A stretch of DNA of 64,000 nucleotides from a virus (IMGVR_UViG_3300025121_000014:128001-192000); one strand, 5' to 3'; positions 41,649 through 63,968 are shown, numbered from the stretch's first letter. Made by a program: numbers and translations. The notes: generated by a model not told the origin, from the sequence alone.

Positions 41649-41649
41649 A

Positions 41650-41878: not shown

Positions 41879-42742
41879 TTAGTTAGAAAGCTTATCATAG
41901 AAATCTTTCATCTCTTGAATTTGAATACTTAATTCTGGAATAGTTAAATCTATATCAGTTTCATTAAGAGTACTTAATGTTCTATTACACATAGATGACG
42001 CTTCTTTAGGTTCTACTTCTATGTTTAGTTCATAAATATTCGATATCATATTAACTAATTCTTCTTTTGTTACACTATTAGGTGAATATACGTGTTTAAC
42101 ACCTTCCCAATATAAATCATTTTTGATAATATATTCACATACTTTTGCAAATTGTAGACAAGTAATACCATTCCATGAATGATTAGTATAACCAAATACT
42201 TTTTTATCTTTATTCGATTTTATCCATTCAACTAATGATCTAGCTTGATTAACTTCTTCACCTATAATAGAAGTTCTAACAACAGTCGTATTTGCTGGTT
42301 CTCCTAATGATTTAGTTCTACCATAAATATCTGTTACATCATGTTCAGCATCTTCTTTATAATTACCGTTATTACCACTATATACACAATCCGTAGTTAT
42401 ATGAATTAATTTATAACCTAAAAAATCACAAGCATCTTTTAAATCGTATGGGAATAATGAATTGATTTTAATTGCATTTTTCACACCTAATTTATCTACT
42501 TGTGGTTTTATAGTACCTATACAATTTATAACAATAACTTCATCTGTGTTTATTAATTTCATATTATCTAATTTTATCTTTAAGTCGTTTAGAGCGTCTT
42601 TTGATGCATCTAATATTGTTCTATCTGTTCCAATAACATCTATACCTTTATTTAAAAAATATTTATAAACATATCTTCCTAACATTCCATTCTTACCTAA
42701 TACTATAATTCTTTTTTTCATTTTATTTGTTTTATTTTTCAT
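41879..42742 (-). CDS. rmlD: dTDP-4-dehydrorhamnose reductase-like SDR
   Basis: GKNGMLG, IHITTDCVY, YGRTK, RTSIIG. Confidence 0.85.
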   Translation of the reverse strand: MKNKTNKMKKRIIVLGKNGMLGRYVYKYFLNKGIDVIGTDRTILDASKDALNDLKIKLDNMKLINTDEVIVINCIGTIKPQVDKLGVKNAIKINSLFPYDLKDACDFLGYKLIHITTDCVYSGNNGNYKEDAEHDVTDIYGRTKSLGEPANTTVVRTSIIGEEVNQARSLVEWIKSNKDKKVFGYTNHSWNGITCLQFAKVCEYIIKNDLYWEGVKHVYSPNSVTKEELVNMISNIYELNIEVEPKEASSMCNRTLSTLNETDIDLTIPELSIQIQEMKDFYDKLSN

Positions 42743-43149
42743 CTATATTCAATATCCCATATATCCCATTTATTATATGATTCTCTAAAATCATCGCCTT
42801 TACCTTCTTCCATAGTAACAGTTGAAAAGAATATTACAATTGTATCTTCTTCTAATGTTTTAAATCCGTTATAATTTCCAGGTGGAATCCATAATATTTT
42901 AGGTGATGTATCACTTAAAACGAATTTATTAATTTCTTCTGTTTCCATATTAACTATACCTAATGATATAGAACCTTTTGGAACATAAACATATTTTCCT
43001 TCTTTTTTATGACCGTGCCAAGCTCTTATAAATCCTTTTTCATGATTTTCTACTTGATAAAATCTTTTAACTCCTTCGAAGTTAAAATCATTTACAAATC
43101 TTAATGTTCCTCTATCATCCGTAAATAATGCGCCTTTTATTTCTTTCAT
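42739..43149 (-). CDS. RmlC/WxcM-like cupin (sugar epimerase/isomerase)
   Basis: FTDDRG, IRAWHGH, LWIPPGNYNGFKTL. Confidence 0.8.
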   Translation of the reverse strand: MKEIKGALFTDDRGTLRFVNDFNFEGVKRFYQVENHEKGFIRAWHGHKKEGKYVYVPKGSISLGIVNMETEEINKFVLSDTSPKILWIPPGNYNGFKTLEEDTIVIFFSTVTMEEGKGDDFRESYNKWDIWDIEYR

Positions 43150-44114
43150 ATTTTCTTTAAATTGTTTTTATATTTTAGTTTATTTTTAATAAATTGTCCA
43201 TTATAATATGTATTTTCTTTTACATCACTTATTCTTTTTTCTTTAAAAATTTTAATCATATTTTTTACTTCTGATTCAATAGTATATAATGGTCGATATT
43301 CAAAATTATCCAATAATTTTTTATTACTAACTTTATAATTTCTTGCATCTTCAAAAGATATTTCAGTATAATTTATTTTAGTTTCAGGAATTACTTTAAC
43401 TACTCTTTCACCTAATGATTTCATAGTTGTATTTTCTTGAGATAATATAAATGTTCCTCTAATATCTTTTCTTACTGCTTCTTCTATATATCCAGCTATA
43501 TCTTTTATACAAATTAATGGTCTCCATTGTTCTCCACCAAATATATTTATTTCACCATCAAATATAGATTTCATAGTAATCACATTAACTACCAAATCTA
43601 ATCTAATTCTAGAATAAGTATCTCCAATTCCATAAACAGTTCCTAATCTAAATATTGTTCCATTTTTATCGGTAATATATTGTTCAGCTTTTAATTTAGT
43701 TGAAGCATAAGCTGATAATGGATTTGTAGGACTATTTTCATCTAACATATTATTTTGAGCACCATAAACAGAACAAGTACTCAAAAATATTAAATGTTTA
43801 TCATCAGATATATTATCACATATATTTCTGACAGCTTCATGGTTTATTTCATTTGTCAGTTCTAAATCAATAGAACAAGCTGGATCACCAACTAATGCGG
43901 CCATTATTATTATTACTTCAAAATTTTCTGATAATTCTACTATTTTGTTAGTATCTCTAATATCACCATATATAAAATTTACATTTTTTAAATATCTAGT
44001 TTCATAGACTAATTTATCAAAAATTGTAACATCATAATCTTTATCTGTTAGGTAATCGGTAGTATATCCTCCAATATAACCTGCCCCACCTAAAATTAGT
44101 ATTTTTTTATTCAT
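43146..44114 (-). CDS. NAD-dependent epimerase/dehydratase
   Basis: GGAGYIG, STCSVYG, YASTK, RLGTVYG. Confidence 0.9.
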   Translation of the reverse strand: MNKKILILGGAGYIGGYTTDYLTDKDYDVTIFDKLVYETRYLKNVNFIYGDIRDTNKIVELSENFEVIIIMAALVGDPACSIDLELTNEINHEAVRNICDNISDDKHLIFLSTCSVYGAQNNMLDENSPTNPLSAYASTKLKAEQYITDKNGTIFRLGTVYGIGDTYSRIRLDLVVNVITMKSIFDGEINIFGGEQWRPLICIKDIAGYIEEAVRKDIRGTFILSQENTTMKSLGERVVKVIPETKINYTEISFEDARNYKVSNKKLLDNFEYRPLYTIESEVKNMIKIFKEKRISDVKENTYYNGQFIKNKLKYKNNLKKI

Positions 44115-45205
44115 TATAAAAGTTGATTTAATTTTTCTATAATTAAGTCTGATGTATTACCATTACCTAACCAATCAGAATTAATTTTTATTTTACCATT
44201 TAGTATATCAATTATATACATTGTAGCTTGTGGCCAACTATCATCATATTTATTAACATTTAACATTACTGAACAATTATTTTCAACTGATTCTGGTCTT
44301 TCAGTAAAATCCCTTGGTACGATAACAGGGGTGTTAAATAACGAAGGTTCTTCTTGTGCAGTTCCACTATCGGATATAATGAATAAACTATGGTAAACAG
44401 CTTCTAAATAGGTTTTAAAAGACATTAAAGGAACAAGTTCTATATTTTTTTTATCTAAATCGATATTAAATTTTTTTAGCATTTGTTCAGTTCTACCAAA
44501 ATTTAACATTTTAATAGGTAAATTAAAAAATGTTTTTGACATATCATTAGCATAATTAATAATATTAATTAATCTATGTGGATATTTGAAATTTTCTGGC
44601 CTATGAATATCTAATATAATTTGATTATTGCGTTTAGGTGTTTTAAATATTTCTTCTTGATATTGTTTTGCTACTTCCACAATTGTATTACCGACAACGA
44701 ATATTTGTTCTTCTTTTATATTTTCTTGTAATGCTTTCTGTTTGTAATTTTCGTGATATACAAATAAATAATCTGAACAATGATCACAAACAACTCTATT
44801 TATTTCTTCTAACATTCTTTTATCATAACTTCTCATACCAGCTTCAATATGACCGATAGTATATCCTTCTTTTTTCAAAGATACAGCACAAGCTGCCGAA
44901 TTAGAATCACCTAAAAATAATATCATATCAGGTTTTAAATTTTCATTTCTAATTAATTCTATTATTTTAATTGATAAATCACCTAATTGATGGAAATGTT
45001 CTTTTCCTTTACCACCTATTTCTAAATTATAATCAGGTTTTCTAATTTTTAGTTCATCAAAGAATACATCAGATAATAATTTATCATAATGCTGTCCACT
45101 ATGAATTAAAATATGATTAAAATTATCATCTAATTTTTTAAAGATTGTAGACATTCTAATAAAGTCTGGTCTTATTCCTGTTATTGTTATTATAGTTTTT
45201 TTCAT
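44114..45205 (-). CDS. wecB: UDP-N-acetylglucosamine 2-epimerase (non-hydrolysing)
   Basis: GIRPDFIR, HSGQHYD, GDSNS, HIEAGMRS, ISDSGTAQEE, ERPE. Confidence 0.9.
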   Translation of the reverse strand: MKKTIITITGIRPDFIRMSTIFKKLDDNFNHILIHSGQHYDKLLSDVFFDELKIRKPDYNLEIGGKGKEHFHQLGDLSIKIIELIRNENLKPDMILFLGDSNSAACAVSLKKEGYTIGHIEAGMRSYDKRMLEEINRVVCDHCSDYLFVYHENYKQKALQENIKEEQIFVVGNTIVEVAKQYQEEIFKTPKRNNQIILDIHRPENFKYPHRLINIINYANDMSKTFFNLPIKMLNFGRTEQMLKKFNIDLDKKNIELVPLMSFKTYLEAVYHSLFIISDSGTAQEEPSLFNTPVIVPRDFTERPESVENNCSVMLNVNKYDDSWPQATMYIIDILNGKIKINSDWLGNGNTSDLIIEKLNQLL

Positions 45206-45227
45206 ATTGTTTATATATGAAAAATCA

Positions 45228-46271
45228 TTAAAAGTTATTTTTTAAATCAAATTTCATTATAATTTCAACTAATTCTTTAAATTTAACTTTTGGTTCCCAT
45301 CCTAATATATTTTTAGCTTTTGAATAATCACCGATTAAAATATCTACTTCTGCTGGTCTAAAATATTTAGGGTCAATTTCTATAATAATTTTACCTGTTT
45401 TTTTATCTATTCCTTTTTCATCTAATCCTTCCCCGAACCATTCAATATTAAACATTGTATATTTATCTGTTTCTTTTATAAATTCTCTTATAGAATGTGT
45501 TTCGTTAGTTGCTAAAATAAAATCGTCAGGTTTATCTTGTTGTAACATTAGCCACATACCTTCTACATAATCCGGTGCATAACCCCAATCTCTTTTTGAA
45601 TCCAAATTACCTAATTTTAATGTATTATATTCTTCATTATTTTGAATAGATTTTTGTATATTTGATAATGTAGTAGTAATTTTTCTAGTTACAAATGTTT
45701 CACCTCTACGTTTTGATTCGTGGTTGAATAATATTCCATTAGATATAAATAAATTATAACTTTCTTTATAGTTTTTACAAATCCAATATGAATATAATTT
45801 AGCTACACCGTAAGGACTTCTTGGATAAAACGGAGTAGTTTCTTTTTGTGGAATTTCTTGTACTAAACCAAATAATTCTGAAGTCGTAGCATTATAAAAT
45901 TTACAATTAGGTGTGTGTTTTTTCATTGCTTCTAATAATTTCAATGTTCCTAAAGCATCTACTTGACCAGTGTATTCAGGTATTGAAAAAGATACATGAA
46001 CGTGTGATTGTGCTGCAAGATTATAAATTTCATCTGGTTTAGTTTTAAATATAATATTATCTAATGATAACGAATCGCTCATATCACCGTAATGTAATTT
46101 TAAATTTGGATTATTGTAAATATGATTTATCCTACCTGTATTAAATGAACTAGAACGTCTTATTATACCGTGTACTTCATATCCTTTATTAAGAAGTAAT
46201 TCTGCTAAATAACTTCCATCTTGACCTGTCACACCCGTAATCAACGCTATTTTTTTTCTTTTATTTTTCAT
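45228..46271 (-). CDS. gmd: GDP-mannose 4,6-dehydratase
   Basis: [43 protein letters not shown]. Confidence 0.97.
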
Positions 46272-46300
46272 TTATATATTTTATTTTTTTGATATATAGT

Positions 46301-47161
46301 TCATAAGTTAAATTTATCACCAATCATCATTTTAAGATTATCTTCATACCACATTTCATGATTTGTTTTTTCAAATTTATGGTTAGCTATTTTTTCTGGT
46401 ATTTCGTTTGGATTATTAAAATAAATACAATCTTCAAATTGCAATTCTTCATAATATCTTTCCATTCCTGGTTTTATTTGTTGAATTGGTATCGAACCTA
46501 CAAATAAAATTTCCCAAAATCTAGGAGGAATAGATATTGCTGTACTAATAGGGGCAACTACATATTTGTACTGGCTTATTAAATTAATATAATCTTCTGT
46601 ACTTCTTTTATTATCATCTCTTTTAAAAACATCTACTTCAATAACTTTACTAACTTTTTCTAAAATATCTTTCCTTTCCTTATGCCATGAAGCTTCATAT
46701 TGTCCAACAAAAACCGCTTTATTTATTTTTGTTTCTGATATATTAAATTTATTTTTAAAATTTTTAGAAATTAAACATTTATTTAAATATTTATGATTAT
46801 ATCTTGCTGCATCTTCAATATCAATAAAAAACTGTGTAACATTTTTCATATTATCAATAGTTCTTTGATAATCTTCATTCCAAGGAAATGCAGAATTCCA
46901 AACTTTTTCGACATTTAAAATAACTACTTGAATATCACTATTATCTAATCTTTTAATAAAATCTGAATAATTCCATTGTTCATTATTAGGAATAAAATGT
47001 TCATCTAATATAAATAATATATCAACTTTATCTAATGTAGATATATTTTTGTCATATATAAATACATTATCATTTGGAAACAAATTTATAATTGCATAAT
47101 ACCAATTTTGTATTATCATACAATAGGTATAATTACTACTTATTATGCATATATTTCTCAT
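46301..47161 (-). CDS. Putative GT-B glycosyltransferase (CgeB/exostosin-like C-terminus)
   Basis: AVFVG...ERKDIL...YKYVVAP...RFWEILFVGSIPI; paralog of 49419..50264. Confidence 0.55.
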   Translation of the reverse strand: MRNICIISSNYTYCMIIQNWYYAIINLFPNDNVFIYDKNISTLDKVDILFILDEHFIPNNEQWNYSDFIKRLDNSDIQVVILNVEKVWNSAFPWNEDYQRTIDNMKNVTQFFIDIEDAARYNHKYLNKCLISKNFKNKFNISETKINKAVFVGQYEASWHKERKDILEKVSKVIEVDVFKRDDNKRSTEDYINLISQYKYVVAPISTAISIPPRFWEILFVGSIPIQQIKPGMERYYEELQFEDCIYFNNPNEIPEKIANHKFEKTNHEMWYEDNLKMMIGDKFNL

Positions 47162-47164
47162 ATT

Positions 47165-48334
47165 TTAATTTATTTTTTTATTTACAATATCACATATAAA
47201 TAATATTTCATCTTTTGTTATTTGATGATTATTAGGTAAATACAATCCATATTTATCTACGTTATCAGCAAAATCAAATGATTGTTTTCCGTACATATCT
47301 ATCCAAAATGGTTGATTTCCTATATTGCCACATATTAAAGGTCTATTATCAATATTATTATTATTTAATTCTTTTACAATATCATCAATTTTAGGTGATA
47401 TAATTGGATAAGCAAAATTAGAAATATAATTATAATCATAATCAGTTATTTTCCAATAATCATTTTTTATATTTTTTTGATATAATTTATAATTTTTATT
47501 TCTAATTTTATTATGTTTATCTATTTTATTTAATTGATTAATTCCTATGAAAGCCTGTAAATCTGTTGACCTAAGATTAAAACCAGGTACAAAAAAAGAA
47601 TACAACGATTTAAAATCAGTAATATTATAATTGTTTTTTAATTTAGTTTGTTCATTTTCTTCTAAATCTCTAGACCAACCATGACTTCTTATAGATAATA
47701 GAATATTATATAATTCTTCATTATTTGTAGATACCATACCACCTTCTATAGTTGACATATGATGTCCAAAATAAAAAGAAAAAGAACTCATTAAACCAAA
47801 TGTTCCTGTTTTATTTCCTTTATATTCTGTTCCAATACTTTCACAAGAATCTTCTAATAATTGTACATCATATTTATTACAAATTTCTAATATTTCATCC
47901 ATTTTATTAGGAAAGGCTAATGCATGAACAATTATTAACGATGATGGATTTTCTGTTTTACATAAATATTCTAAATGTTCTAAATCTATACCTAGTGTAT
48001 CTTTATCACATTCACATAAGATCGGGGTTAATCCTAAATGTATAGTCGGGGAAACCGTTGTTACCCAAGATACACTAGGAACTACGATTTTATTATTTTT
48101 TAATCGTTTTGATAAAATCAAAGAATATACCATTGCTAAATTAGCTGATGATCCCGAATTTAAATATACAGAATATTTAACTCCTAACCATTTTGACCAT
48201 TTTTTTTCAAATTCTATTGTTAAACTTCCTTTCGTCAATTTAGGATTTGTTTTTAACCACTTTCTTAATAATTTTATATCTTTCTTATCTATTGTATCTT
48301 TAACTAGCGGAATATTTAAATTTTTTAATGTCAT
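47165..48334 (-). CDS. DegT/DnrJ-family PLP enzyme, ColD-like GDP-4-keto-6-deoxymannose 3-dehydratase
   Basis: NSGSSANL, EDSCES; SFYFGHHMSTIEGG has His at the usual PLP-lysine position. Confidence 0.8.
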   Translation of the reverse strand: MTLKNLNIPLVKDTIDKKDIKLLRKWLKTNPKLTKGSLTIEFEKKWSKWLGVKYSVYLNSGSSANLAMVYSLILSKRLKNNKIVVPSVSWVTTVSPTIHLGLTPILCECDKDTLGIDLEHLEYLCKTENPSSLIIVHALAFPNKMDEILEICNKYDVQLLEDSCESIGTEYKGNKTGTFGLMSSFSFYFGHHMSTIEGGMVSTNNEELYNILLSIRSHGWSRDLEENEQTKLKNNYNITDFKSLYSFFVPGFNLRSTDLQAFIGINQLNKIDKHNKIRNKNYKLYQKNIKNDYWKITDYDYNYISNFAYPIISPKIDDIVKELNNNNIDNRPLICGNIGNQPFWIDMYGKQSFDFADNVDKYGLYLPNNHQITKDEILFICDIVNKKIN

Positions 48335-49085
48335 CTATTGTATCATCCATTATTTTTTGATATTTATATTTAGTACTATTTAAATAAAATATTTTTCTTT
48401 TTAATAATAAATTATGATCAAAATTTTCTGTAACTAATTCATTATAATTTAAATCGAATTTATTATATAATTCTCTAATAAAATCATTAATATATATTAA
48501 TCTACCTGAGCCTACAATTTCATCATCTAATGCTATTATTGATTTTTCTATAATATATTTTGGATGAATTATATCTCTATAAAAATACGTATTGCCTATT
48601 TCTATTGAACTTTCATTAATTATAGAATCAAAAATTTTACTAAATAAAAATCCTTTTTTTCTATATGGACTATTGAAATTAAACGGATAAATTATAATGA
48701 CATTATTATAATTTTCTTTTATATAATTACTAATCATTTCTTTTGATTTTATATAAGGTGAATAATTATAACTATAATTTAGACTTAAATCAATAGGACC
48801 TTCACAATTATTCCATAATTCACACGTAGAATAATAAACTATCTTATTACATCTATCTTTAAAAAAATCAATCACTTTAATAGTATAATAAAAATTTATA
48901 TTAATAAATAATTGATCGTCATTTTCTATAAATGTTCTTTGCTCTGCAAAAGTGATATATACTCTGTCAAATTTATCATTTTTATATTTATCAAAATCTA
49001 TATTACGTGATGATATTTTTATATAATCATCTGGAAAATAATATGATAATTGTGATGTATTACCTATTACTAAGTTATTCTTCAT
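48300..49085 (-). CDS. Divergent NAD-dependent epimerase/SDR-like protein
   Basis: GNTSQLS, STCELW, YIKSK, FNFNSP, RDIIHP. Confidence 0.6.
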   Translation of the reverse strand: MKNNLVIGNTSQLSYYFPDDYIKISSRNIDFDKYKNDKFDRVYITFAEQRTFIENDDQLFININFYYTIKVIDFFKDRCNKIVYYSTCELWNNCEGPIDLSLNYSYNYSPYIKSKEMISNYIKENYNNVIIIYPFNFNSPYRKKGFLFSKIFDSIINESSIEIGNTYFYRDIIHPKYIIEKSIIALDDEIVGSGRLIYINDFIRELYNKFDLNYNELVTENFDHNLLLKRKIFYLNSTKYKYQKIMDDTIDDIKKFKYSAS

Positions 49086-49422
49086 GTCCTTTATATAATT
49101 TTACTGAATCTTCAATTAAAGATTTATTTTGTTTTATTGATTTATCAATCATTCTATTTATAGCTTCTACATATTTAGGTCTTTTTTGTTTAAAACAAAT
49201 ATCTATTTTCTTTTTATATTTAGCTATATCTTCATCATTTGTTGATTCACCTATAACATCTTCTAGATACCACATTCTACAATGAAGTATAGATAATTTT
49301 TCTATTACTTCTCCTATATTATCAGTTTCTATTAAATCGTTTGGTAAATCAACTTCTTTACTATTATTCAATGTTTCATGAACTATATTTTTTATTACTT
49401 CTTCTATTTTTTCTCCTATCAT
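49075..49422 (-). CDS. Small helical protein (DUF4254-like)
   Basis: IGEVIEKLSILHCRMWYLED. Confidence 0.55.
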   Translation of the reverse strand: MIGEKIEEVIKNIVHETLNNSKEVDLPNDLIETDNIGEVIEKLSILHCRMWYLEDVIGESTNDEDIAKYKKKIDICFKQKRPKYVEAINRMIDKSIKQNKSLIEDSVKLYKGHEE

Positions 49423-50264
49423 AACAAATTATCATTTTTTAATAATTTACCTATTGTATCTTCTAGCCATATCATATTATAACTATTATTTAATTTGCAA
49501 TTATTTATTTTGTTTTTTAATTCAGATATATTTTCAAAAAATATACAATCATCAAATTGTGATTCTATATCATAATATTTTAATGTATTATTTTTTACTT
49601 CTTGTATAGGTATTGATTTAGCTAATAATATTTCATAAAATCTCATTGGAAAAAAATGTGCATTACCAAAAGGTGAAATAACAAATTTATATTTTGCTAA
49701 TTTATGAATATATTCTATCCAAGTCATATTATTACTTTCAATTATATCTATTGGTATAATATTACTTATATGATTTAAAAGATTACGTCTTTTTTCATAA
49801 CCTACACTACCTATAAATATTGCTTTATTTAATTTATCTTGTTCTTGAATTTGCCCCAAAAAACTTTGAACATACTTTGATGGTGGCATTCTATTAAATC
49901 TTTTATTTAATTTTATGACATCATCTACATCAGACACATATTGATAAACATTATTAAATTTATTTACATATTCTTGATTTTCAACATTCCAAAAATAATC
50001 TGAATCCATAATACGTTCATTATTAAATATAATAACAATTATGTTGTTATTATTACATTCATTTATAAATTCTATATTCTTCCATATTTCTTTATTTTGT
50101 ATATGGTGTTCATCTCCTATACACAATATTTCTATATCATTTAAATCATTTATATTTTTAACTATTGTTAAATTTTTATAATGATACAGTATCGAATGAT
50201 AATAACTTTGAAATAATGGATGTTTTTGGAAATTTAAATCACATATTATACCTACATTTTTCAT
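49419..50264 (-). CDS. Putative GT-B glycosyltransferase, paralog of 46301..47161
   Basis: AIFIGS...EKRRNLL...YKFVISPFG...RFYEILLAKSIPI. Confidence 0.55.
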   Translation of the reverse strand: MKNVGIICDLNFQKHPLFQSYYHSILYHYKNLTIVKNINDLNDIEILCIGDEHHIQNKEIWKNIEFINECNNNNIIVIIFNNERIMDSDYFWNVENQEYVNKFNNVYQYVSDVDDVIKLNKRFNRMPPSKYVQSFLGQIQEQDKLNKAIFIGSVGYEKRRNLLNHISNIIPIDIIESNNMTWIEYIHKLAKYKFVISPFGNAHFFPMRFYEILLAKSIPIQEVKNNTLKYYDIESQFDDCIFFENISELKNKINNCKLNNSYNMIWLEDTIGKLLKNDNLL

Positions 50265-50272
50265 TTAATTTA

Positions 50273-50953: not shown

Positions 50954-50969
50954 AATTTATTGTTATTTT

Positions 50970-52549: not shown

Positions 52550-52550
52550 A

Positions 52551-54677: not shown

Positions 54678-54687
54678 TTTCTTTTAA

Positions 54688-55422: not shown

Positions 55423-55423
55423 A

Positions 55424-56044: not shown

Positions 56045-56045
56045 T

Positions 56046-56939
56046 TTAAATATATTTTTTTAATTGGTTATCAAATTTTAATTTAAGATTATTCATATTT
56101 TCTAATATTATATTTGGGTGAATACCATTAAATTTCCTAGTAAATGTTGGTGTTCTTTTATGTGGTTTAAATTCATGAACTCCTGCATATTGCTGTTCTA
56201 TTTTTAATTTATCTTCGTTTGTTTTTGCTAAAACCCAAGGTAAATATATAGTATCAAAATAATTATCTATACAAATATCTTTACTAACCGCTCCTTTATA
56301 ATATTTTATTTTTTGATATACTTGATCTGGAAATACATATGAATAATGATACATTCTTATACCATAAGTATGTGCTAATGTATTAAAATCTAATAATTTT
56401 TCAGGAAATATATGTGCGCCAACTCTAGGATTATGTGCAATTATAGGTGGTCTATGTCTTTCCCAATACGACCCTGGATATATTTTTCTAATTCTTATAA
56501 ATGGTGCATTTTCTTCAAACCCACTTATAACATCATCAAATCCACCATAAAATGATAAACTTTTAAAAGCAACGGTTGTATATCTATGTGTTTCTAATAA
56601 TTCTAATATTTTTTGAATATCTTCTGGTTTAAATACTTCATCACTATCTAAATTCCATATATAATCATTATCATCTTTTAAATATTGCATATATGCTTGA
56701 CATTGTTCATCTTTCTCTTTGTATATAGAATGTACAATTGATATCTTATTTTCTGGATCAGGAAAATTATCAAGAATTTCATTTGTTCCATCATCTGATG
56801 TTGTCATACCTTGTTCTTGCCACCAAGTAACAGGTCCTTCTGCTATTAATATTTGATTAGCAAATGGATAAATATTTTTTAATGTTTCTTCTAAAACATA
56901 ATTTCCATTTAAAACTATTATACCAAATGCTATTTTCAT
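56046..56939 (-). CDS. GT-A (GT2-like) glycosyltransferase
   Basis: ILIAEG...SDDGT, IWNLDSDE, HYSYV. Confidence 0.7.
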   Translation of the reverse strand: MKIAFGIIVLNGNYVLEETLKNIYPFANQILIAEGPVTWWQEQGMTTSDDGTNEILDNFPDPENKISIVHSIYKEKDEQCQAYMQYLKDDNDYIWNLDSDEVFKPEDIQKILELLETHRYTTVAFKSLSFYGGFDDVISGFEENAPFIRIRKIYPGSYWERHRPPIIAHNPRVGAHIFPEKLLDFNTLAHTYGIRMYHYSYVFPDQVYQKIKYYKGAVSKDICIDNYFDTIYLPWVLAKTNEDKLKIEQQYAGVHEFKPHKRTPTFTRKFNGIHPNIILENMNNLKLKFDNQLKKYI

Positions 56940-57847
56940 ATCTTATATTTATCTTTTATTTGTTTAAGATGATTAAAATAATCATCATAATATTTTTGTA
57001 TTTCACCTTTAAAAAATGGACGTAAACAACTACCCCATTCTCCTTCTTTATCTATTTTATAAGTATCATTTTCATAATTTTCATCGAAATGAGAAAAATG
57101 ATTAAATAATAAATTTTGTTGTTTATTTTTCCATATAATTTTATTATCTCCTAAATATTGATATAATCCTAAATTCCAAGGAGCACCATGACCTATATCA
57201 TCATCAAATATTTTTATATTTTCATCACCAAATAACAACCCAAATGCTTCTAAATATTTTTGATCACCACAAGTACCATATTCTTTTGCCCATTGATTAT
57301 CTTTATCAATCATACAATCTCTCCACCATTTTAAACAATTTATACCAGGAACATCATTTCTAAAATATATTATACCCACGTTATATGCTCCTACATAACA
57401 ACCAAAATTATTATGTCTATGTAATATTAATCCTATACTTTTACCAATCATAATATCAAATAAAATATTAAAATCGCCATAAAATTTAATATCTGAATCT
57501 ATATAAATTAATTCTGGTAAATCAAATTTTTTCATTAAATGATAAGTTATATAAGGCGCAGATGCATAATGATAAGTAGAAACATAATCTGGTCTACCTT
57601 TCATATTATCATCAATAGATTTACTACTTTTCATTAAAATTTTAAATTCATCGTCTTCAATAATATTATTAGCATGATATGGTATTAATTTAGGATTATT
57701 TATATTTTGTATTATATTATATGTTTTATCATCTAAACATAAATAATATAATTTAAAATCTATATTTGATGTACTTTCTAAACTATCAAACAAAACTAAT
57801 CCTTTATCAATATATTTTATATCTGATAATGTAACTAAATATTTCAT
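56936..57847 (-). CDS. GT-A glycosyltransferase
   Basis: LIYIDSDI, YNVGIIYF, GDQKYLE, FNHFS. Confidence 0.7.
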   Translation of the reverse strand: MKYLVTLSDIKYIDKGLVLFDSLESTSNIDFKLYYLCLDDKTYNIIQNINNPKLIPYHANNIIEDDEFKILMKSSKSIDDNMKGRPDYVSTYHYASAPYITYHLMKKFDLPELIYIDSDIKFYGDFNILFDIMIGKSIGLILHRHNNFGCYVGAYNVGIIYFRNDVPGINCLKWWRDCMIDKDNQWAKEYGTCGDQKYLEAFGLLFGDENIKIFDDDIGHGAPWNLGLYQYLGDNKIIWKNKQQNLLFNHFSHFDENYENDTYKIDKEGEWGSCLRPFFKGEIQKYYDDYFNHLKQIKDKYKI

Positions 57848-58507
57848 TTATTTTATTTTATTTTTTATATACAATGCATCACCCCAAGTATAATCACTAT
57901 GCCAAAATGTATCATATCTATTAAAACCAAAACTATATAAAAAGCTATCTAATTCTTCAATAATTACACAATTTTTATATAATTCTACTTTATTAACTTC
58001 ACTCATTATATAATCAATATTTTCTAACGTATCAACAGAACCTTTAAATACTTCTAATTCATATCCTTGAACATCAATATTTATAAAATTATAATTATTT
58101 TTTTCAAATTTGATATTATCTAATTTTTGAATATCAATTTCTATTTTATCATTAAAAACAATAAATGGATATTGTGTTGCATGTAACAATGGTTCTAGTA
58201 AAGAACTAGATTGACTTTCATTATCATATTCAACATACATTTCTGCTTTTCCTATTTTATTACCTAATGCCATATTATATAGATTAACATTATCATCATT
58301 GATATTTATTTTTAATTTTTCAAAAGTATGTGGTAATGGTTCAAAAAACATTAAATTATTTATATTTAAATTTTTATAAACTGAATATTCACTACCTATA
58401 TGCGCACCAATATGAATAACACCTTTAATATTCATATTATATTTATTTTTTAATTGTGCTAAATTCATTTTCATTTTATTATTTTTATTTTTTAGTATTC
58501 TATCCAA
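57848..58507 (-). CDS. FkbM-family methyltransferase
   Basis: HIGAHIG, FEPLP, INIDVQGYELEVFKG, WGDALY; true start probably slightly downstream (MKMNL). Confidence 0.9.
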   Translation of the reverse strand: MDRILKNKNNKMKMNLAQLKNKYNMNIKGVIHIGAHIGSEYSVYKNLNINNLMFFEPLPHTFEKLKININDDNVNLYNMALGNKIGKAEMYVEYDNESQSSSLLEPLLHATQYPFIVFNDKIEIDIQKLDNIKFEKNNYNFINIDVQGYELEVFKGSVDTLENIDYIMSEVNKVELYKNCVIIEELDSFLYSFGFNRYDTFWHSDYTWGDALYIKNKIK

Positions 58508-59181
58508 TTATATTTTGAACTAACTCTTATATTTTTAGGATAATTTCTTACATATGTATGATAATATAAATTATTTGTTTTTAAATTTAAATGTTCTACT
58601 AAACATTTATAAGACGATTCCATTAAATGTATTTCTTTAGCATTTTCTATTATATAGGAATAATCAAATAAACCATATGTTTTTAACGGTCTAATTATTT
58701 TAATATTTTTAGGCAATAAATCTTCTTTTATTTTAAACCCTCTATCTATATCATCATGTACAAAAACATATTCATTTTCATTTAATCCTAATTCATTAAA
58801 AACAAATTTTTCTTTATCTATATTTCTTTCCATATAAAAATTATCCCATTTTTTATTAAAAACTATTCCTGCTAATTTATAGAATTGCATATCAAAATTA
58901 TCAGCATTTACATCACTTAATTGTAAATCACCAAATCCTATTTTTTTAAAATTTTTAATTTTATTATTTCTTATAAATGGTTCTATTACATATTCACCAT
59001 CTAAATCTATTGGGAATAATTCTACATTTATATCTAAATACATTTGTTTAACATTTTCTAAATATACTTTAAAACAAAATATATGAATTTTATCATAACT
59101 TTTATATAATTCTCTTACCATTCCGTTACATATGATATTATCACCTAATCCCATATGATGATATAAGTATAATTCTTCCAT
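58492..59181 (-). CDS. Putative GT-B glycosyltransferase
   Basis: HHMGLGDNIICNG, AKEIHLMESSY. Confidence 0.55.
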   Translation of the reverse strand: MEELYLYHHMGLGDNIICNGMVRELYKSYDKIHIFCFKVYLENVKQMYLDINVELFPIDLDGEYVIEPFIRNNKIKNFKKIGFGDLQLSDVNADNFDMQFYKLAGIVFNKKWDNFYMERNIDKEKFVFNELGLNENEYVFVHDDIDRGFKIKEDLLPKNIKIIRPLKTYGLFDYSYIIENAKEIHLMESSYKCLVEHLNLKTNNLYYHTYVRNYPKNIRVSSKYNWIEY

Positions 59182-59993
59182 TATTTATAATATTGATTAT
59201 ATTTTTTAACATCATATTCATTAGTTCTTTTAGTAACCTGATTATATAATCTGTAATTTACTTGTGTTATTTCATATGGTACTGTTTTATCAATATATGC
59301 ATCAACATGACATTGATGTATAACTGATGGATTATCAATTATTTTTATATTCATTCCTTTTTTATGAATACGTTCTAAAAATTCATTATCATCCCAAGCT
59401 AAACCATTAGCATATCTTTCGTCAAATCCACCTAAATCATATAAATCTGATCTTGTTATAGCTGAACAAAAATGTAACATACTACGTCTATAAATTGAAT
59501 GGTTATACCAACCATTAGTTCTATTATCACATGATATATTATTATAAGGTTCTATAACATTTTTAATATTTTCTACGTAATTTTCTTCTTTATCAACATT
59601 ATTTATTAATTCAGTTAAATTTTTATCTACTGAATAACAAGCATAAGTTAAATATGTATTACCTTCTATATTTTTTTTAACAGATTCTATAATATTACCC
59701 ATATGAATACATTCTGGATTCTGTATTATAATTACATCATTTGTAATTTGATTAAATCCTATATTATATGGTATACATGGATTCATCCAATGTTTTTTAT
59801 CTTTATCTATTTTAATAATTTTAATATTCAAATCAAAAATATCTTTAAACTCAGTTATATCTTCATAACTCGCATCATCAATAATTAAAATTTCTATATC
59901 TTCATCATATTTCATATATGATGACATAGATTTTAATGTATTAAATAATATACTTTTCCTATTATAATATGACATTATTATTGTTATGCTCAT
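59181..59993 (-). CDS. GT2-family glycosyltransferase
   Basis: IIMSYYNR, IIDDAS, YNIG, GGFDERY...WDDNEF. Confidence 0.85.
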   Translation of the reverse strand: MSITIIMSYYNRKSILFNTLKSMSSYMKYDEDIEILIIDDASYEDITEFKDIFDLNIKIIKIDKDKKHWMNPCIPYNIGFNQITNDVIIIQNPECIHMGNIIESVKKNIEGNTYLTYACYSVDKNLTELINNVDKEENYVENIKNVIEPYNNISCDNRTNGWYNHSIYRRSMLHFCSAITRSDLYDLGGFDERYANGLAWDDNEFLERIHKKGMNIKIIDNPSVIHQCHVDAYIDKTVPYEITQVNYRLYNQVTKRTNEYDVKKYNQYYK

Positions 59994-60002
59994 AATCTAT
60001 TT

Positions 60003-60695
60003 TTATTTTTTATAATATTTTTCAATTATAGGTGAACGCTGATCACCTAACGGTAAATCATTTTCAGCAATTGCTTCTCCAATAAAAGCAAAATTATCTA
60101 TTTTTCTATCTCTTTTTATGGGTATACCTATATTTTCATAATTATAATATTCATCATGTATTAGACAATCATTTTTAATAATCGGATATAAAATATCTCT
60201 TAGAAACATTTGATCAGTCGTTCTATTTCTATTATAATTAGCCGAATTTTTAATATAATTGTCCATTAATTCCTTTATATTAGTAATAATTCTGCCTTTT
60301 CCTCCCCACATACCAGCATTTATTACCCAACTATGACCAACTGGATGATCCCTTATTATATGAAAAGATTTATTAGATTCTATCCATTCACTAACAGCAA
60401 TTTCATCTCTTTCACTTATTCTAGAATCACAATCCCTTGATATAAAATAATCTACATTTTCACTTAAAGGAAAAAATCGCCAAGTTGAATTAATAAATCC
60501 TCTATCTTCATTAGTATTTATCAAATTAACACCATTATCTTTTAATTCATTTAAAATATTTATAGAAGTGGTATTATTATGATAAACTCTCATTTCCCAA
60601 TCAGTAAAAAGTTTTTTATGAAGCTTTGAATTATTTATAGCACCTATTGTATATTTTGATTCATTTCCATATAAAGAAAAACTTATTACTTTCAT
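60003..60695 (-). CDS. Putative GT-A glycosyltransferase-like protein
   Basis: ISFSLYG, WRFFPL, FISRDCDSR, FHIIRDHP, DQMFL. Confidence 0.55.
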   Translation of the reverse strand: MKVISFSLYGNESKYTIGAINNSKLHKKLFTDWEMRVYHNNTTSINILNELKDNGVNLINTNEDRGFINSTWRFFPLSENVDYFISRDCDSRISERDEIAVSEWIESNKSFHIIRDHPVGHSWVINAGMWGGKGRIITNIKELMDNYIKNSANYNRNRTTDQMFLRDILYPIIKNDCLIHDEYYNYENIGIPIKRDRKIDNFAFIGEAIAENDLPLGDQRSPIIEKYYKK

Positions 60696-60696
60696 T

Positions 60697-61506
60697 TTAT
60701 ATAATTTGTAATTTTTTTAAAGTATTATAAATATTATCTTCTGATATTAAATATTTTTTGGCTTTTTCAAAATTTATTTTAACATATTCAAACACTTCAT
60801 TATATTTATTTTCATTTAATGTATTTATAATATTATTTAAGTCTAAATAAGAATCAATTTGAATTATACCTCTATTATCAAAAAAATCATTAATACTTGG
60901 ACAACCGTAATATATAGGTATAGTCCCCGTCATAAAACAGTCAATTAATTTTTCTGTAAAATAATAATCTTTTTTAGTATTTTCTATTGCAACAGAAAAT
61001 CTATAATCTTTTAACCCATCTAACTTATATTCTATGTTATTAAACCCTCTTCCATATATTTCTAAACCTTTACAATTTTTAATTACATCATGTCTTAATT
61101 TATGACCAATTGTAAAATTTTTATCTGATGATATAATTGATATATTTTTTGTTTTATCATAAATTAAATGATCTTCTGGTTTTATCCAACAACCACCTAC
61201 AGGATTTAATTTAAATTTATCATTTAAATCTAATAAATCTTTATCGAATGTTAAAATTAAATCAAATTTATCATAATTATTAGCTATCCATTCGTATGAA
61301 CTTTTAGTAATAACAGGTGATTCTAATAACCAAGCTATTTTAGTTTTTATATTTAAATTAACACTTTTAAGATTATTATCAGTAAATATAACTATATCAT
61401 CAATAGAATATGGTGTTCTGTCCCATTTCATTTTTGATGATTTATTGAATAATGTGCTATATTCTACATGATTAAATATACTATCTTGTATCTTTATATT
61501 TACCAT
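60697..61506 (-). CDS. GT10-family (alpha-1,3/4-fucosyltransferase-like) glycosyltransferase
   Basis: YRFSVAIEN...YFTEKLIDCFMTGTIPIYYG. Confidence 0.85.
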   Translation of the reverse strand: MVNIKIQDSIFNHVEYSTLFNKSSKMKWDRTPYSIDDIVIFTDNNLKSVNLNIKTKIAWLLESPVITKSSYEWIANNYDKFDLILTFDKDLLDLNDKFKLNPVGGCWIKPEDHLIYDKTKNISIISSDKNFTIGHKLRHDVIKNCKGLEIYGRGFNNIEYKLDGLKDYRFSVAIENTKKDYYFTEKLIDCFMTGTIPIYYGCPSINDFFDNRGIIQIDSYLDLNNIINTLNENKYNEVFEYVKINFEKAKKYLISEDNIYNTLKKLQII

Positions 61507-62255
61507 ATTAAAATTGAATTATTTTTATGTGTTTTTGGTTCTTCTTCTTTCATTGATATATTATTATTAATTAAATTAATTAATTCGTCTAAATTATAAG
61601 AATTTATATTAAATTTATCACTTATAAAATTGGCTGTTATATATCCATTTTTACAATTATTCAATATTTTATTTATATAAATATCTTGAATATTTTTATC
61701 ACACTCTGTAAATGCATAATTAGATATAACCAAATCATAATTTTCAATATCTTTTAATTGTGTTATGTCTTTAAAAAAAACATTATTTATATTGTTTAAA
61801 CTTAAATATTTTTTTGATAAATCTAATGATTCTTCTAAATCAATTAAAGTATATGAATTAAATTTAAAATATTTAGAAAAAATTAAACATTGTCCACCAT
61901 ATCCACCACCAATTTCAACTATATTTTTATTATTAAAATCCCCTAATATTATTAAATCAGATAAAACTTTAACATATCTTAATGTACTTGGTGATATATA
62001 TCCTATATTTTCAAATAATATTTTATTTGGTGTACCAAATTCATCATTAACTTTAAATTTATTAATATCATTAATCAATTGATTATTATCACGTTCTATT
62101 ACTTTTAAATATTCTTTTGCTTGACTTTCAGATGTATGTTCTAATATTTCTGTATAATCTGGCAATTGTTTAAATTTATTAAATAAAGATTGATTAATTA
62201 AAATTTGTTTAATAATATTTTTATATTTATCTGTATCACTTATACTACTTTTCAT
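61500..62255 (-). CDS. Putative sugar O-methyltransferase
   Basis: SPSTLRYV, VEIGGGYGG, DLVISNYAFTEC. Confidence 0.75.
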   Translation of the reverse strand: MKSSISDTDKYKNIIKQILINQSLFNKFKQLPDYTEILEHTSESQAKEYLKVIERDNNQLINDINKFKVNDEFGTPNKILFENIGYISPSTLRYVKVLSDLIILGDFNNKNIVEIGGGYGGQCLIFSKYFKFNSYTLIDLEESLDLSKKYLSLNNINNVFFKDITQLKDIENYDLVISNYAFTECDKNIQDIYINKILNNCKNGYITANFISDKFNINSYNLDELINLINNNISMKEEEPKTHKNNSILIW

Positions 62256-63042
62256 TCAATTTTAAATTTATTTTTATTTCTTGATGACAAGATATATTAT
62301 TAATATTATCAAAATCTTTCATATCTATAATATAATCATCTAAATATTTATCATTTAATTCGTCAATATTTTCATTGCCATGTTTATTTGGATTATTATT
62401 TTGAACTATATTACAAGGATTATTAATTATAATTGATTTTTGATAACATATCATTTTTGGTAAATTTATTGGTTTAACTGCCATATTTCCTTCAAACGAA
62501 TTAGGATTTGTATAATTCATATATAATATATATGGTAATATTTCATTAGTTCTAAATATATTACCATCTACTGACATAGGATAACCATAATCTCCTTTTT
62601 GATTTCTCCAATAAAATATATTATCATTATCAAAATCTGGATTAGAAATAGGAATAGATGCAGCATAACAATAAGTTAATCCAGGTTGTAATCTTAAACT
62701 TCTACATAATATTTCTTTATCATTTTTAAAAATATTCATTTGATTATCAAAGAAATCAAAATCATTTTTAAAAACAATATCATCAACAAAAAATGTAGTA
62801 AATTCATTTGATTGATTAACTAAATTAATTAAATCTAATTTAAAATACTTTTCTATTACAAAATTAATATGATGGAATTTATTAATTAATTTATCATATC
62901 CATTCTTAAAAGAATCATTTGAATATGTATATAATACATTAATAATATATTTATCATAATCTTTAACATATTTAATAAAACTTCTAATAAATAAATCTAA
63001 TTGCAATGCTCTATCTTTACTGAATACTATTATATTTATCAT
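62245..63042 (-). CDS. Putative GT-A glycosyltransferase-like protein
   Basis: IVFSKDRALQL, FFVDDIVF, YPMSVDG, NPNSFEG. Confidence 0.55.
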   Translation of the reverse strand: MINIIVFSKDRALQLDLFIRSFIKYVKDYDKYIINVLYTYSNDSFKNGYDKLINKFHHINFVIEKYFKLDLINLVNQSNEFTTFFVDDIVFKNDFDFFDNQMNIFKNDKEILCRSLRLQPGLTYCYAASIPISNPDFDNDNIFYWRNQKGDYGYPMSVDGNIFRTNEILPYILYMNYTNPNSFEGNMAVKPINLPKMICYQKSIIINNPCNIVQNNNPNKHGNENIDELNDKYLDDYIIDMKDFDNINNISCHQEIKINLKLNEK

Positions 63043-63968
63043 TTTATATTTTCTTCATAAATTTTTATAGTCTGTTTAATTCCATCATCTAAATTAATTT
63101 TAGGTTTCCAACCTAAATTATTTATTTTAGAAGTATCTAATTGTTTTCTAAATGTACCATTTGGTTTACTATCATCCCATATTATATTACCTTTAAAATC
63201 ATAAGCTAATGCTATTTTTGTAGCTAATTCTTTTATTGTTAAATCTATACCAGTACCAACATTTAACGGAATAACACCATCATAATTTAACATTAAAAAT
63301 AACATAGCATCAGATAAATCATCAACATGTAAAAATTCTCTATAAACAGAACCATCACCCCATAATGTTACATCACTTTTATTTATTTTTGCTTCATAAA
63401 ATTTTCTAATTAATGCAGCAAATACGTGTGATTTATTTAAATCATAATTATCTTTTATTGATCCATATAAATTAGTTGGCATAACTGATATGAAATTACA
63501 CCCATATTGTTTTTTATAACTTTCTGCCATTTTTAAACCAGCAATTTTTGCAATAGCATATGGTTCATTTGTTTGCTCTAATTCACTAGTTAATAAATAT
63601 TCTTCTTTTATTGGTTGTGGGCAATTTTTAGGATATATACAAGAACTTCCTAATAATAATAATTTTTTAACTCCAAATTCTTTTGAATTATGAATAATAT
63701 TAGATTGCATCATAATATTATTATAAATGTAATCAGCTCTACGAATATTATTATCATAAATTCCACCTACTAAACCAGCACACATAAAAATATATTCAGG
63801 CATCATACTATTAAAAAACATTTTTGTTTTATATTGATCAGTTAAATCTAATTCATTACTAGATAGTGTTATTAAATTACTATAACCTTCTTGTTTTAAT
63901 TTATTGACCATTGCAGATCCAACTAAACCATTATGCCCTGCAATATAAATTCTACTATCTTTATTCAT
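63039..63968 (-). CDS. fcl: GDP-L-fucose synthase (Fcl/WcaG; could also act as ColC)
   Basis: GHNGLVGSA, AGLVGGI, GSSCIYPK, YAIAKIAG, MPTNLYG, REFLHVDDL. Confidence 0.95.
   Translation of the reverse strand: MNKDSRIYIAGHNGLVGSAMVNKLKQEGYSNLITLSSNELDLTDQYKTKMFFNSMMPEYIFMCAGLVGGIYDNNIRRADYIYNNIMMQSNIIHNSKEFGVKKLLLLGSSCIYPKNCPQPIKEEYLLTSELEQTNEPYAIAKIAGLKMAESYKKQYGCNFISVMPTNLYGSIKDNYDLNKSHVFAALIRKFYEAKINKSDVTLWGDGSVYREFLHVDDLSDAMLFLMLNYDGVIPLNVGTGIDLTIKELATKIALAYDFKGNIIWDDSKPNGTFRKQLDTSKINNLGWKPKINLDDGIKQTIKIYEENIK

Follow-up and report, generated by a model that had tools for sequence, protein, structure and literature searches.

What does a phage build with an entire operon of sugar genes, and where is the product placed? 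This question is raised by IMGVR_UViG_3300025121_000014:128001-192000, a stretch of 64,000 nucleotides (nt) of viral DNA, here called the window, in which a glycan-synthesis island occupies positions 41879-63968. By its gene content the island is a member of the known phage "lipopolysaccharide (LPS) cluster" class, as in P-SSM2 and S-SSM7, a very large one and from a new clade. Among the possible destinations of the glycan, the phage's own (virion) proteins are put first, if only narrowly, with a probability of roughly 0.4. This destination had already been proposed by an earlier reading of the sequence (further referred to as the original prediction); it is plausible and unproven. To our knowledge, it is twenty years since large soluble glycan clusters were first recognised in the genomes of large lytic phages, and we know of no functional test of any of them.

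The island was first described as 28 contiguous genes on the minus strand, and this description is borne out by the layout of the open reading frames (ORFs) together with Pfam and NCBIfam assignments. Between 41879 and 63968 there are 28 adjoining ORFs of 115-389 amino acids (aa), without exception on the minus strand, with gene junctions of -35 to +29 nt and frequent ATGA-type overlaps, in a window whose GC content is a uniform 22%. It was also claimed that the island runs off the edge of the window, and contigs L001 and L002 indeed show a further 3.2 kb with four more glycosyltransferase (GT) genes, followed by a topoisomerase II module. The full island, uninterrupted and co-directional, comprises 32 genes in about 25.3 kb. 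The first of the four outer genes just reaches the window:

63971-64000, minus strand: GT2 gene (246 aa) of which only the 3' end is inside the window (gene calls and Pfam on L001 and L002).

Upstream of it, the same gene calls and Pfam matches give a GT32-like protein of 286 aa, a GT2 of 259 aa and a GT2-like protein of 280 aa, after which L001 carries a split topoisomerase II and a thymidylate kinase. An independent groundwater contig of 26 kb (L002/L020) spans the whole island; L002 equals the window at 100% over 10,962 bp, L001 and L002 agree at 99.96% identity over 2,576 bp, and L001 matches the window end at 99.9%. Because this independent contig reproduces the island, the latter is no assembly artefact. 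The island sequence is identical across independent samples and studies, and the protein encoded at 63039-63968 (Fcl) is 100% identical on 7 contigs. An apparent frameshift of 62245-63042 in L003 turned out to be a scaffold gap of Ns.

As regards expression, the motif TAATATATA ends 4 nt ahead of the first island gene, and the large terminase (TerL) gene at 21777 has the same geometry. Many genes in the window have the motif about 5-30 nt ahead of their start, with exact copies at 10173, 21763, 26073 and 36771 on the plus strand, at 35988, 31800, 27241 and 15836 on the minus strand, and at position 6763 of L001; none was found before any of the 28 island genes in the window. We infer that the island, together with the TAATATATA of its first gene, forms a single long transcription unit, which probably runs on into two PspC genes 16 nt downstream. 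For TerL-C and the first island gene a gap of only 4-5 nt separates the motif from the ATG, which points to transcripts with no leader or a very short one, and the A/T-rich leaders of the island genes, in which no Shine-Dalgarno sequence is present, are consistent with a Bacteroidota-type host. A scan for sigma-70 promoters and terminators was uninformative at 22% GC (243 sites against 246 expected). Over 31 ORFs, namely the 28 of the island and three just downstream, the stop codons are TAA (23), TGA (7) and TAG (1). The window also encodes a tRNA with anticodon CUA (an amber suppressor, called tRNA-Pyl by ARAGORN) at 8406-8481 on the plus strand, and TAG is still the stop codon of 7 among 72 long window ORFs and of one island gene. 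Recoding of TAG was considered and set aside: only that one island gene ends in TAG, read-through halts there after two codons, and wholesale recoding is not evident.

Which sugars may be made can be read from the nucleotide-sugar enzymes:

63039-63968, minus strand: GDP-L-fucose synthase, an Fcl/GMER-like short-chain dehydrogenase/reductase (SDR); full-length match to NF047922 (405 bits), Epimerase 197 bits, GxxGxxG and YxxxK motifs kept.
53631-54677, minus strand: pyridoxal phosphate (PLP)-dependent sugar C3-aminotransferase, FdtB/QdtB/WbpE-like; DegT E=2.8e-58, best PDB matches WbpE (E=2.5e-40) and QdtB (E=1.2e-37), PLP lysine motif SFYPTK kept.
53264-53650, minus strand: FdtA-type 3,4-ketoisomerase (cupin); PF05523 E=1.1e-28, full length, 100 bits.
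49075-49422, minus strand: small conserved protein of the colitose-type module; DUF4254 E=8e-5, below the cut-off.
48300-49085, minus strand: divergent SDR with a degenerate Rossmann motif, a candidate 4-reductase/epimerase in the role of ColC; Epimerase E=6.8e-7, from profile position 60.
47165-48334, minus strand: ColD-type GDP-4-keto-6-deoxymannose 3-dehydratase, dependent on pyridoxamine phosphate; PDB ColD 2gms/3gr9 E=7.5e-66.
45228-46271, minus strand: GDP-mannose 4,6-dehydratase (Gmd); TIGR01472 527.7 bits (cut-off 415), PF16363 474 bits.
44114-45205, minus strand: non-hydrolysing UDP-N-acetylhexosamine 2-epimerase, WecB-like; PF02350 225 bits, TIGR00236 199 bits (cut-off 210).
43146-44114, minus strand: extended SDR, a nucleotide-sugar epimerase/dehydratase; Epimerase E=9.7e-33, no equivalog reached.
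42739-43149, minus strand: RmlC/FdtA-like cupin, a 3,5-epimerase or ketoisomerase; PF00908 E=6e-10, PF05523 E=8.5e-7.
41879-42742, minus strand: RmlD-like 4-ketoreductase, the last enzyme gene of the island; PF04321 E=1.3e-18, TIGR01214 51 bits.

The ColD-like protein, like the C3-aminotransferase a DegT enzyme, matches E. coli ColD over its full length (RfbH model, 205 bits) and has a histidine in the place of the PLP lysine (GHH at 190, aligning with SHH of ColD), which is the mark of 3-dehydratases. The divergent SDR has no GxxGxxG motif and no PDB sequence match, and its homologue adjoins a ColD-like gene every time in L009, L013 and L016. The small protein at 49075-49422 received no assignment in NCBIfam, Pfam and PDB searches; its homologues (68-71% identity) adjoin those of the SDR and ColD in L013 and L016. 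Pfam revealed no nucleotidyltransferase, phosphomannomutase (ManB/ManC) or RmlB among the island proteins; therefore the host must supply the precursors, which would be GDP-mannose, UDP-GlcNAc and a nucleoside diphosphate (NDP)-4-keto-6-deoxyhexose. By their families, Gmd and Fcl would yield GDP-L-fucose, and Gmd with ColD and a reductase (the SDR at 48300-49085 or Fcl) a colitose-type GDP-3,6-dideoxyhexose, while FdtA and the C3-aminotransferase would give a 3-amino-3,6-dideoxyhexose. The WecB-like enzyme may lead to a ManNAc-type sugar and the RmlC/RmlD-like pair to a 6-deoxy-L-hexose; the WecB-like protein, the extended SDR, the cupin and the RmlD-like protein fit either branch. This appears to be the first ColD-type 3,6-dideoxyhexose module of a phage, and a literature search found no report of phage-encoded colitose.

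The enzymes that would join these sugars are the following:

62245-63042, minus strand: GT of the GT-A fold, no significant Pfam match; Atlas feature score 0.99, structural TM-score 0.9.
60697-61506, minus strand: GT10-like protein with a fucosyltransferase C-terminal domain; PF00852 E=2.8e-9.
60003-60695, minus strand: small GT-A protein, no Pfam match above threshold; Atlas score 0.98, TM-score 0.91.
59181-59993, minus strand: GT2; Glyco_tranf_2_2 E=3.9e-10, Glycos_transf_2 E=6.5e-9.
58492-59181, minus strand: compact GT-B protein, GT9 (heptosyltransferase)-like, no Pfam match; AlphaFold2 (AF2) mean confidence (pLDDT) 94.7.
56936-57847, minus strand: GT8-like nucleotide-diphospho-sugar transferase; Atlas score 0.98, Pfam sub-threshold (PF01501 E=0.047).
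56046-56939, minus strand: GT2; PF00535 E=1.2e-8.
52551-53264, minus strand: GT-A protein, no Pfam match; AF2 pLDDT 86.6, Foldseek matches TarP, SpsA, TarS and GnT-I.
51740-52549, minus strand: probable GT47/RXYLT1-like GT (weak); PF03016 E=0.0037, PF24785 E=0.006.
50970-51743, minus strand: GT32-type (DXD) GT; Gly_transf_sug E=3.2e-16, Caps_synth E=3.9e-9.
49419-50264, minus strand: ORF with a faint GT61-like hint; PF04577 E=0.051, no PDB sequence match.
46301-47161, minus strand: ORF with a faint GT-B hint; Glyco_trans_1_2 E=0.0031, below the cut-off, no PDB match.

Ten solid and two weak GTs are thus predicted in the window, and four past its edge. Four of those in the window have no significant Pfam match and were placed by fold (62245-63042, 60003-60695, 58492-59181 and 52551-53264). 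The protein at 62245-63042 matches GT clusters that are 78-89% viral, and its homologues, at 49-54% identity, head the islands of L006 and L008. The GT clusters nearest to 60003-60695 are 91-100% viral, Nucleocytoviricota clusters among them, and homologues occur in L009 (63%) and L023 (38%). For 58492-59181 the predicted fold matches 3tov and 1psw in Foldseek (E=7e-5 to 2e-4), and a 45% homologue is found in a capsule locus of a Bacteroidetes metagenome-assembled genome, in the order Wza-Wzx-FkbM-GT-[homologue]-GT4...Wzi. The fold of 52551-53264 matches best that of TarP (Foldseek E=3e-6 to 5e-5 over the matches named), and its EDH and DDHG motifs are invariant in 10 homologues. The GT8-like protein reaches TM-scores of 0.87-0.91 with mostly viral clusters carrying Glyco_transf_8/Nucleotid_trans, and homologues of the GT47-like one occur at 52-54% in L006 and L008. 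Relatives of the GT10-like protein were found on 13 IMG/VR contigs at 42-57% identity, in LR756501 (54%) and LR756504 (40%), and in the cyanomyoviruses S-SRM01, S-SM2, S-SSM7 and S-SCSM2R (32-45%).

Methylation of the product is suggested by a third group of genes:

61500-62255, minus strand: class I S-adenosylmethionine (SAM) methyltransferase; Methyltransf_12/MTS/Spermine_synth matches.
57848-58507, minus strand: FkbM-family methyltransferase; PF05050 E=1.4e-19.
55424-56044, minus strand: class I SAM methyltransferase, MetW/Methyltransf_23-like; PF07021 E=1.5e-6.
54688-55422, minus strand: possible fifth methyltransferase; weak matches only (RMNT_CmcI E=0.08, PDB 3c3p E=0.07).
50273-50953, minus strand: class I SAM methyltransferase; Methyltransf_11 E=8.8e-6.

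The first has 37% identity to the methyltransferase adjoining the GT10-like gene of cyanophage S-SSM7, and FkbM homologues (55-57%) adjoin GT10 in L009-L014. Originally five methyltransferases had been counted, of which four are firm and the fifth (54688-55422) reaches only E=0.08; the rest of the gene list was essentially right, with the "GT47-like", "GT1-like" and GT61-like calls falling below threshold. Together, 14-16 soluble GTs and 4-5 methyltransferases would assemble, within the cytoplasm, a large hetero-oligosaccharide that is non-repeating and in part methylated.

Such a set of enzymes also bears on the second destination that had been offered at the outset, namely the hypermodification of DNA, in which GTs would decorate hydroxymethylated or otherwise modified phage bases and so permit evasion of restriction. 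Phages do glycosylate their DNA, at times with several sugars (Pyle 2024, cited in PMC12619734; PMC13326640). Nucleotide-kinase genes lie near such islands (thymidylate kinase in L001, thymidine kinase in L028), and a Mom-domain gene precedes the island of L006. Nevertheless, no island protein matches in Pfam the families of the T4 alpha- and beta-glucosyltransferases or a DNA-binding domain, and a base hydroxymethylase was not seen among the window proteins scanned. The glycans known on DNA are made from UDP-glucose or arabinose by 1-3 GTs, with no GDP- or dTDP-linked deoxy, dideoxy or amino sugars, no set of about 14 GTs and no O-methylation. Because no DNA-GT family or hydroxymethylase was seen and the sugar chemistry fits no known DNA modification, this destination is regarded as very improbable.

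The absence of multi-pass membrane proteins, noted in the original prediction, was confirmed. Hydrophobic segments were sought with the Kyte-Doolittle scale (19-residue window, threshold 1.6), which is a crude predictor and not TMHMM: no island protein has more than one such segment and no protein in the whole window more than two. Pfam gave no initiating phosphoglycosyltransferase (Bac_transf, Glycos_transf_4) among the island proteins, and the hydropathy scan gave no membrane protein of the kind of a GtrA flippase, a membrane-anchored GtrB, a GT-C type GtrC or an acyltransferase_3. Two complete relatives with homologous islands, the 735-kb LR756501 and an IMG/VR genome of 242 kb with a completeness rating of 100%, contain no match to Bac_transf, Glycos_transf_4, Polysacc_synt (Wzx), Wzy_C or PMT_2, with positive controls that scored. 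In 15 related phage loci no protein with at least five transmembrane (TM) segments lies within the island, and the sole one nearby (five segments, 305 aa) is encoded in L023, where it is separated from the downstream island by about 14 kb. Around the cellular homologues of 58492-59181 a protein with at least five TM segments occurs within 10 kb in 12 of 16 loci, and three of the four remaining loci are contigs of less than 6 kb. It can be said that the absence of initiation and export genes is systematic across the 15 phage loci examined. The claim of a pathway that is soluble and cytoplasmic throughout is supported by the predicted families, the TM scan and the loci of the relatives.

Contig L001 (ERZ4902915 NODE_484, 4.4x coverage) follows the window to 62338 and then passes in frame into a GT-C-like PTPS_related domain of nine TM segments and a PMT_2 gene (L001:11608-14614). 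If true, such a GT-C variant would have indicated periplasmic, lipid-linked glycosylation. A sibling strain with GT-C membrane enzymes was rejected; the contig is probably an assembly chimera and was given no weight. Its two parts meet at a 22-nt microhomology, which encodes ELNDKYL and is present as the identical 22-mer in otherwise unrelated genes, and across this joint the GC content changes from 0.208 to 0.255. Elsewhere the membrane part occurs only as a stand-alone gene of 517 aa beside B12-radical-SAM genes. No protein covering more than 70% of the fusion was found among 5.8 billion, and contigs from four further runs aligned on 60500-64000 gave low-coverage pieces of the window type only and no alternative joint. 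A low-GC locus (L025:2230-7890, L026:280-4928) holds a GT-C pair of PTPS_related and PMT_2 among B12-binding radical SAM enzymes, with a GT2 and a polysaccharide deacetylase as well, making up an unusual glycan-modification cassette.

The genes of the window include those of a large terminase, an exonuclease and a transposase, along with a helicase interrupted by homing endonucleases. TerL (21777-24026) has 49.6% identity to that of the 735-kb uncultured phage LR756501 and 43-45% to those of genomes of 634-642 kb. The relatives of 634-735 kb form the Mahaphage clade, with Bacteroidetes as predicted hosts (PMC7162821). Judged from sequence, the carrier of the island is a Mahaphage-type huge phage from groundwater, and its host is probably a member of the Bacteroidota. 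Islands of the same kind exist in LR756501 (at about 337 kb), in LR756504, in IMG/VR UViG 3300044712_000815 and also in freshwater IMG/VR phages. All are co-directional strings of soluble genes of about 20 kb, in relatives with TerL at 50% and the major capsid protein (MCP) at 57% identity, and at 38-57% they have in common the GT10-like gene, 62245-63042, 60003-60695, 58492-59181 and the GT47-like gene. They differ in that just 3-6 genes are common to each pair, and in location, which is after a capsid gene in L006 and after topoisomerase here. In the literature searched no description of these other islands was found, and PMC7162821 does not mention them. Synteny among the relatives is mosaic, with two recurring modules, SDR(48300-49085 type)-ColD-Gmd-Fcl and FkbM-GT10.

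This mosaic picture touches on a further explanation, that the island makes some other cytoplasmic product or has no current function. The options include a free or lipid-bound methylated oligosaccharide, the glycosylation of small molecules or host proteins, and neutral "stuffer DNA" taken from cellular glycan loci. The last of these has been raised for such clusters before (PMC3037559), their content is highly mosaic between relatives, and 4-6 island ORFs are left with no family assignment, among them 49419-50264, 46301-47161, 54688-55422 and 49075-49422 after sequence searches of NCBIfam, Pfam and PDB. Against neutral cargo, all 28 frames are intact and tightly coupled, identical sequence recurs in independent samples and studies, catalytic motifs are conserved, and the order SDR(48300-49085 type)-ColD-Gmd-Fcl is kept across distant phages. 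Intact frames, identity across samples, and kept motifs and module order indicate purifying selection on a working pathway, and this explanation as a whole is considered unlikely.

The nearest described systems are those of cyanomyoviruses. The 24-gene "LPS gene cluster" of P-SSM2 was reported in 2005 (PMC1079782) and those of S-SSM7 and S-SM2 in 2010 (PMC3037559); for these a role at the host surface was only hypothesised, and "stuffer DNA" was considered too (PMC1079782, PMC3037559). Like the island, they belong to large lytic phages, hold nucleotide-sugar enzymes, many soluble GTs and methyltransferases side by side, and have no wzx, wzy or initiating transferase. Homology extends to the GT10-like protein (32-45%), a methyltransferase (37%, S-SSM7) and the ColD-like protein (36%, ACG-2014f); ColD-like genes are found in many Synechococcus phages. 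In contrast to the cyanomyovirus clusters, the island belongs to a groundwater Mahaphage-type phage of 22% GC and forms one operon of about 32 genes. It also has a complete ColD-type 3,6-dideoxyhexose module (in which ColC is only a candidate) together with an FdtA/aminotransferase module. It holds 14-16 GT candidates, compared with 13 in S-SCSM2R, the maximum reported for a marine phage genome (PMC12801897).

Remodelling of the host envelope, the standing hypothesis for these homologous cyanophage "LPS clusters" (PMC1079782, PMC3037559, PMC12801897), would proceed in the following way. On the cytoplasmic side of the inner membrane, the soluble GTs would lengthen a lipid-linked acceptor of the host, either an undecaprenyl diphosphate (Und-PP)-sugar made by host WecA/WbaP or the nascent lipid A-core of lipooligosaccharide (LOS). 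The product would be exported by host MsbA, Wzx/WaaL or an ABC transporter, followed by Lpt, and the new surface glycan would block superinfection or stop the progeny from re-adsorbing. The original prediction regarded the missing membrane genes as an argument against such remodelling, and this argument is not supported. The non-initiating GTs of O-antigen, LOS, capsular polysaccharide (CPS) and teichoic-acid pathways are all soluble or peripheral. The assembly of LOS cores on lipid A takes place in the cytoplasm, and host MsbA then flips them, a route which requires no phage membrane protein. TarP is a phage-encoded soluble GT, and the host polymer that it modifies is exported by host transporters. 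Because of these three facts, the lack of membrane genes cannot speak against a host route.

Several observations are in favour of the host envelope. The GT10-like, methyltransferase and ColD homologues are common to the island and the cyanophage clusters, and the sugars and GT families of the island are typical of O-antigen and LOS. The protein at 52551-53264 is closest in fold to TarP, a soluble phage GT acting on a host-exported polymer. The 45% homologue of 58492-59181 stands beside FkbM in a Bacteroidetes Wza/Wzx/Wzi locus that mirrors the phage gene order, and two PspC-domain membrane proteins follow the island in the same direction. The bacterial Wzx/Wzy or ABC loci for O-antigen and CPS, as well as GtrABC/Oac/TarP, use the same enzyme families and sugars. 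Unlike the O-antigen and CPS loci, the island is devoid of an initiating transferase, flippase, polymerase, ligase and chain-length regulator. Genes for initiation, flippase, polymerase and ligase are retained in none of the 15 phage loci and neither of the two complete genomes. Structure-specific steps (Wzy, often Wzx) would have to tolerate a foreign glycan with about 14 sugars, and many of the GT families are virus-resident and not recently host-derived. A lytic phage that halts host growth can replace only a fraction of the surface LPS. The known seroconverting modules (Gtr, Oac, Wzy-type) do include membrane proteins, whereas the island has no Gtr/Oac membrane protein and is not a matter of 1-3 genes. 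With the evidence divided in this manner, envelope remodelling is held to be a serious, if tentative, possibility.

The placing of the glycan on virion proteins is suggested by comparison with other viruses. The phage-made proteins of the virion surface, fibres or capsid decoration would be modified in the cytoplasm in the way known from giant viruses and glycosylated actinophages, with neither a lipid carrier nor export involved. The fibril clusters of Mimivirus/Megavirinae and the capsid N-glycan genes of chloroviruses, like the island, comprise virus-encoded rare-sugar pathways, soluble GTs and methyltransferases. They act in the cytoplasm independently of the host secretory machinery and form clade-specific mosaic clusters (PMC10117803, PMC9614988). 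Giant-virus clusters are smaller (6-12 genes) or scattered, and their acceptor is known (fibril protein, MCP), whereas the island is known from its genes alone. In the actinophages Che8 and Corndog, soluble phage GTs, some with a methyltransferase, modify capsid and tail-tube proteins (Freeman 2023, cited in PMC12619734). These systems use 1-4 GTs beside structural genes and host nucleotide sugars; in comparison, the island is about ten times larger, has its own sugar synthesis and lies outside the structural module.

The GT families of the island are 78-100% viral for several members, and Nucleocytoviricota clusters occur within some of them. Virion glycosylation is the only established role of such Nucleocytoviricota genes (PMC9614988, PMC10117803). 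The virus-resident GT families argue for a virus-specific acceptor rather than for repeated tailoring to host cores. Further hints are the stripped export genes, the triple-domain GT fusions, the capsid adjacency in L006 and an excess of [ST]GxT. The fusions are proteins of 1100-1122 aa (GT47 + Nucleotid_trans/GT77 + GT25) in the islands of relatives (L007:16279-19581, L023:24113-27481), and they are reminiscent, by analogy of architecture, of the multi-domain GTs of chloroviruses. In L006, a 159-kb fragment of a Mahaphage relative (CheckV completeness 22%), the island starts 2 kb after a gp23-type major capsid gene, the order in L006:1771-8973 being gp21-like prohead protease, the capsid gene, a DUF7487-Mom fusion and then the island. 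Adjacency to a capsid gene was dismissed as a general rule, having been seen in L006 only. The [ST]GxT excess was noticed in giant fibre-like proteins encoded some 9-34 kb ahead of the window (L036:2-19055, L034:10775-19932). These proteins of at least 1504 aa, then 1297, 755, 620 and 611 aa, several with lectin-like Laminin_G_3 domains, were reached by an upstream walk to about -34 kb that ended inside the gene of at least 1504 aa. Serine and threonine make up 17-25% of the fibre-like proteins, except for one of 421 aa, and [ST]GxT was seen 46 times against 15.5 expected, compared with 2 against 1.5 in the island proteins.

Other findings weigh against virion proteins as the destination. The gene set encodes no recognisable acceptor, and neither an acceptor protein nor an initiating protein-GT of the OGT, NGT or TibC type was identified. 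The neighbours of the island are topoisomerase genes, whereas the fibre genes are about 50 kb away, and in LR756501 a distance of 260 kb separates the island from the capsid gene; placement of GT genes in the structural module, as in actinophages, is not observed here and is found only in L006. Colitose, fucose and 3-amino-dideoxyhexose, together with the GT8, GT9-like, GT10, GT32 and TarP-like enzymes, would represent classical LPS, CPS and teichoic-acid chemistry, and the cellular homologue of 58492-59181 lies inside a capsule locus of the Wzx type. The [ST]GxT enrichment could be explained by fibre repeats alone. We know of no phage of a Gram-negative host for which a virion glycan has been shown. 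In its strongest form, the preferred reading would make the island a giant-virus-style cytoplasmic factory which produces its own fucose, colitose-type, amino-dideoxy and methylated sugars and in which about 15 GTs of viral lineage coat the phage's own virion proteins with a complex, non-repeating glycan, and the "LPS clusters" of cyanophages and other large aquatic phages would then be virion-glycosylation systems as well, and not modifiers of the host surface; this is conceivable and is offered with considerable reserve.

The region just downstream of the island holds the two PspC genes mentioned above:

41434-41862, minus strand: two tandem PspC-domain mini-proteins of 70 and 59 aa, single-pass; PF04024 E=1.2e-17.

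Each consists of little beyond the PspC domain and one hydrophobic segment, and the second copy is also called with PspC in L020; a role in membrane stress or a holin-like role is conceivable. At 39924-40937, on the minus strand, lies a gene for a protein of 337 aa whose C-terminal half resembles the phosphopantetheine adenylyltransferase CoaD (90.6 bits against a cut-off of 103.3). Its N-terminal 195 residues have no assignment, and it is not obviously part of a glycan pathway. Farther away, at 27660-31293 on the minus strand, the helicase is present as two ORFs (351 and 310 aa), followed by a homing endonuclease of 538 aa, and a second endonuclease of 564 aa from the same PHROG is encoded beside the terminase (19202-20896, minus strand). 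Three copies of the same endonuclease families in L008 suggest heavy traffic of homing endonucleases in this phage group.

Comprising about 32 genes, 14-16 of them GT candidates, the island is among the largest single operons of its kind, and it brings the Mahaphage clade and groundwater into the "LPS cluster" class. The question asked at the beginning has been sharpened to whether the sugars are put on virion proteins or on the LPS of the infected cell. If the virion reading is true, a glycan coat would be common to large aquatic phages in general, with a bearing on adsorption, grazing, decay and the counting of "auxiliary metabolic genes".

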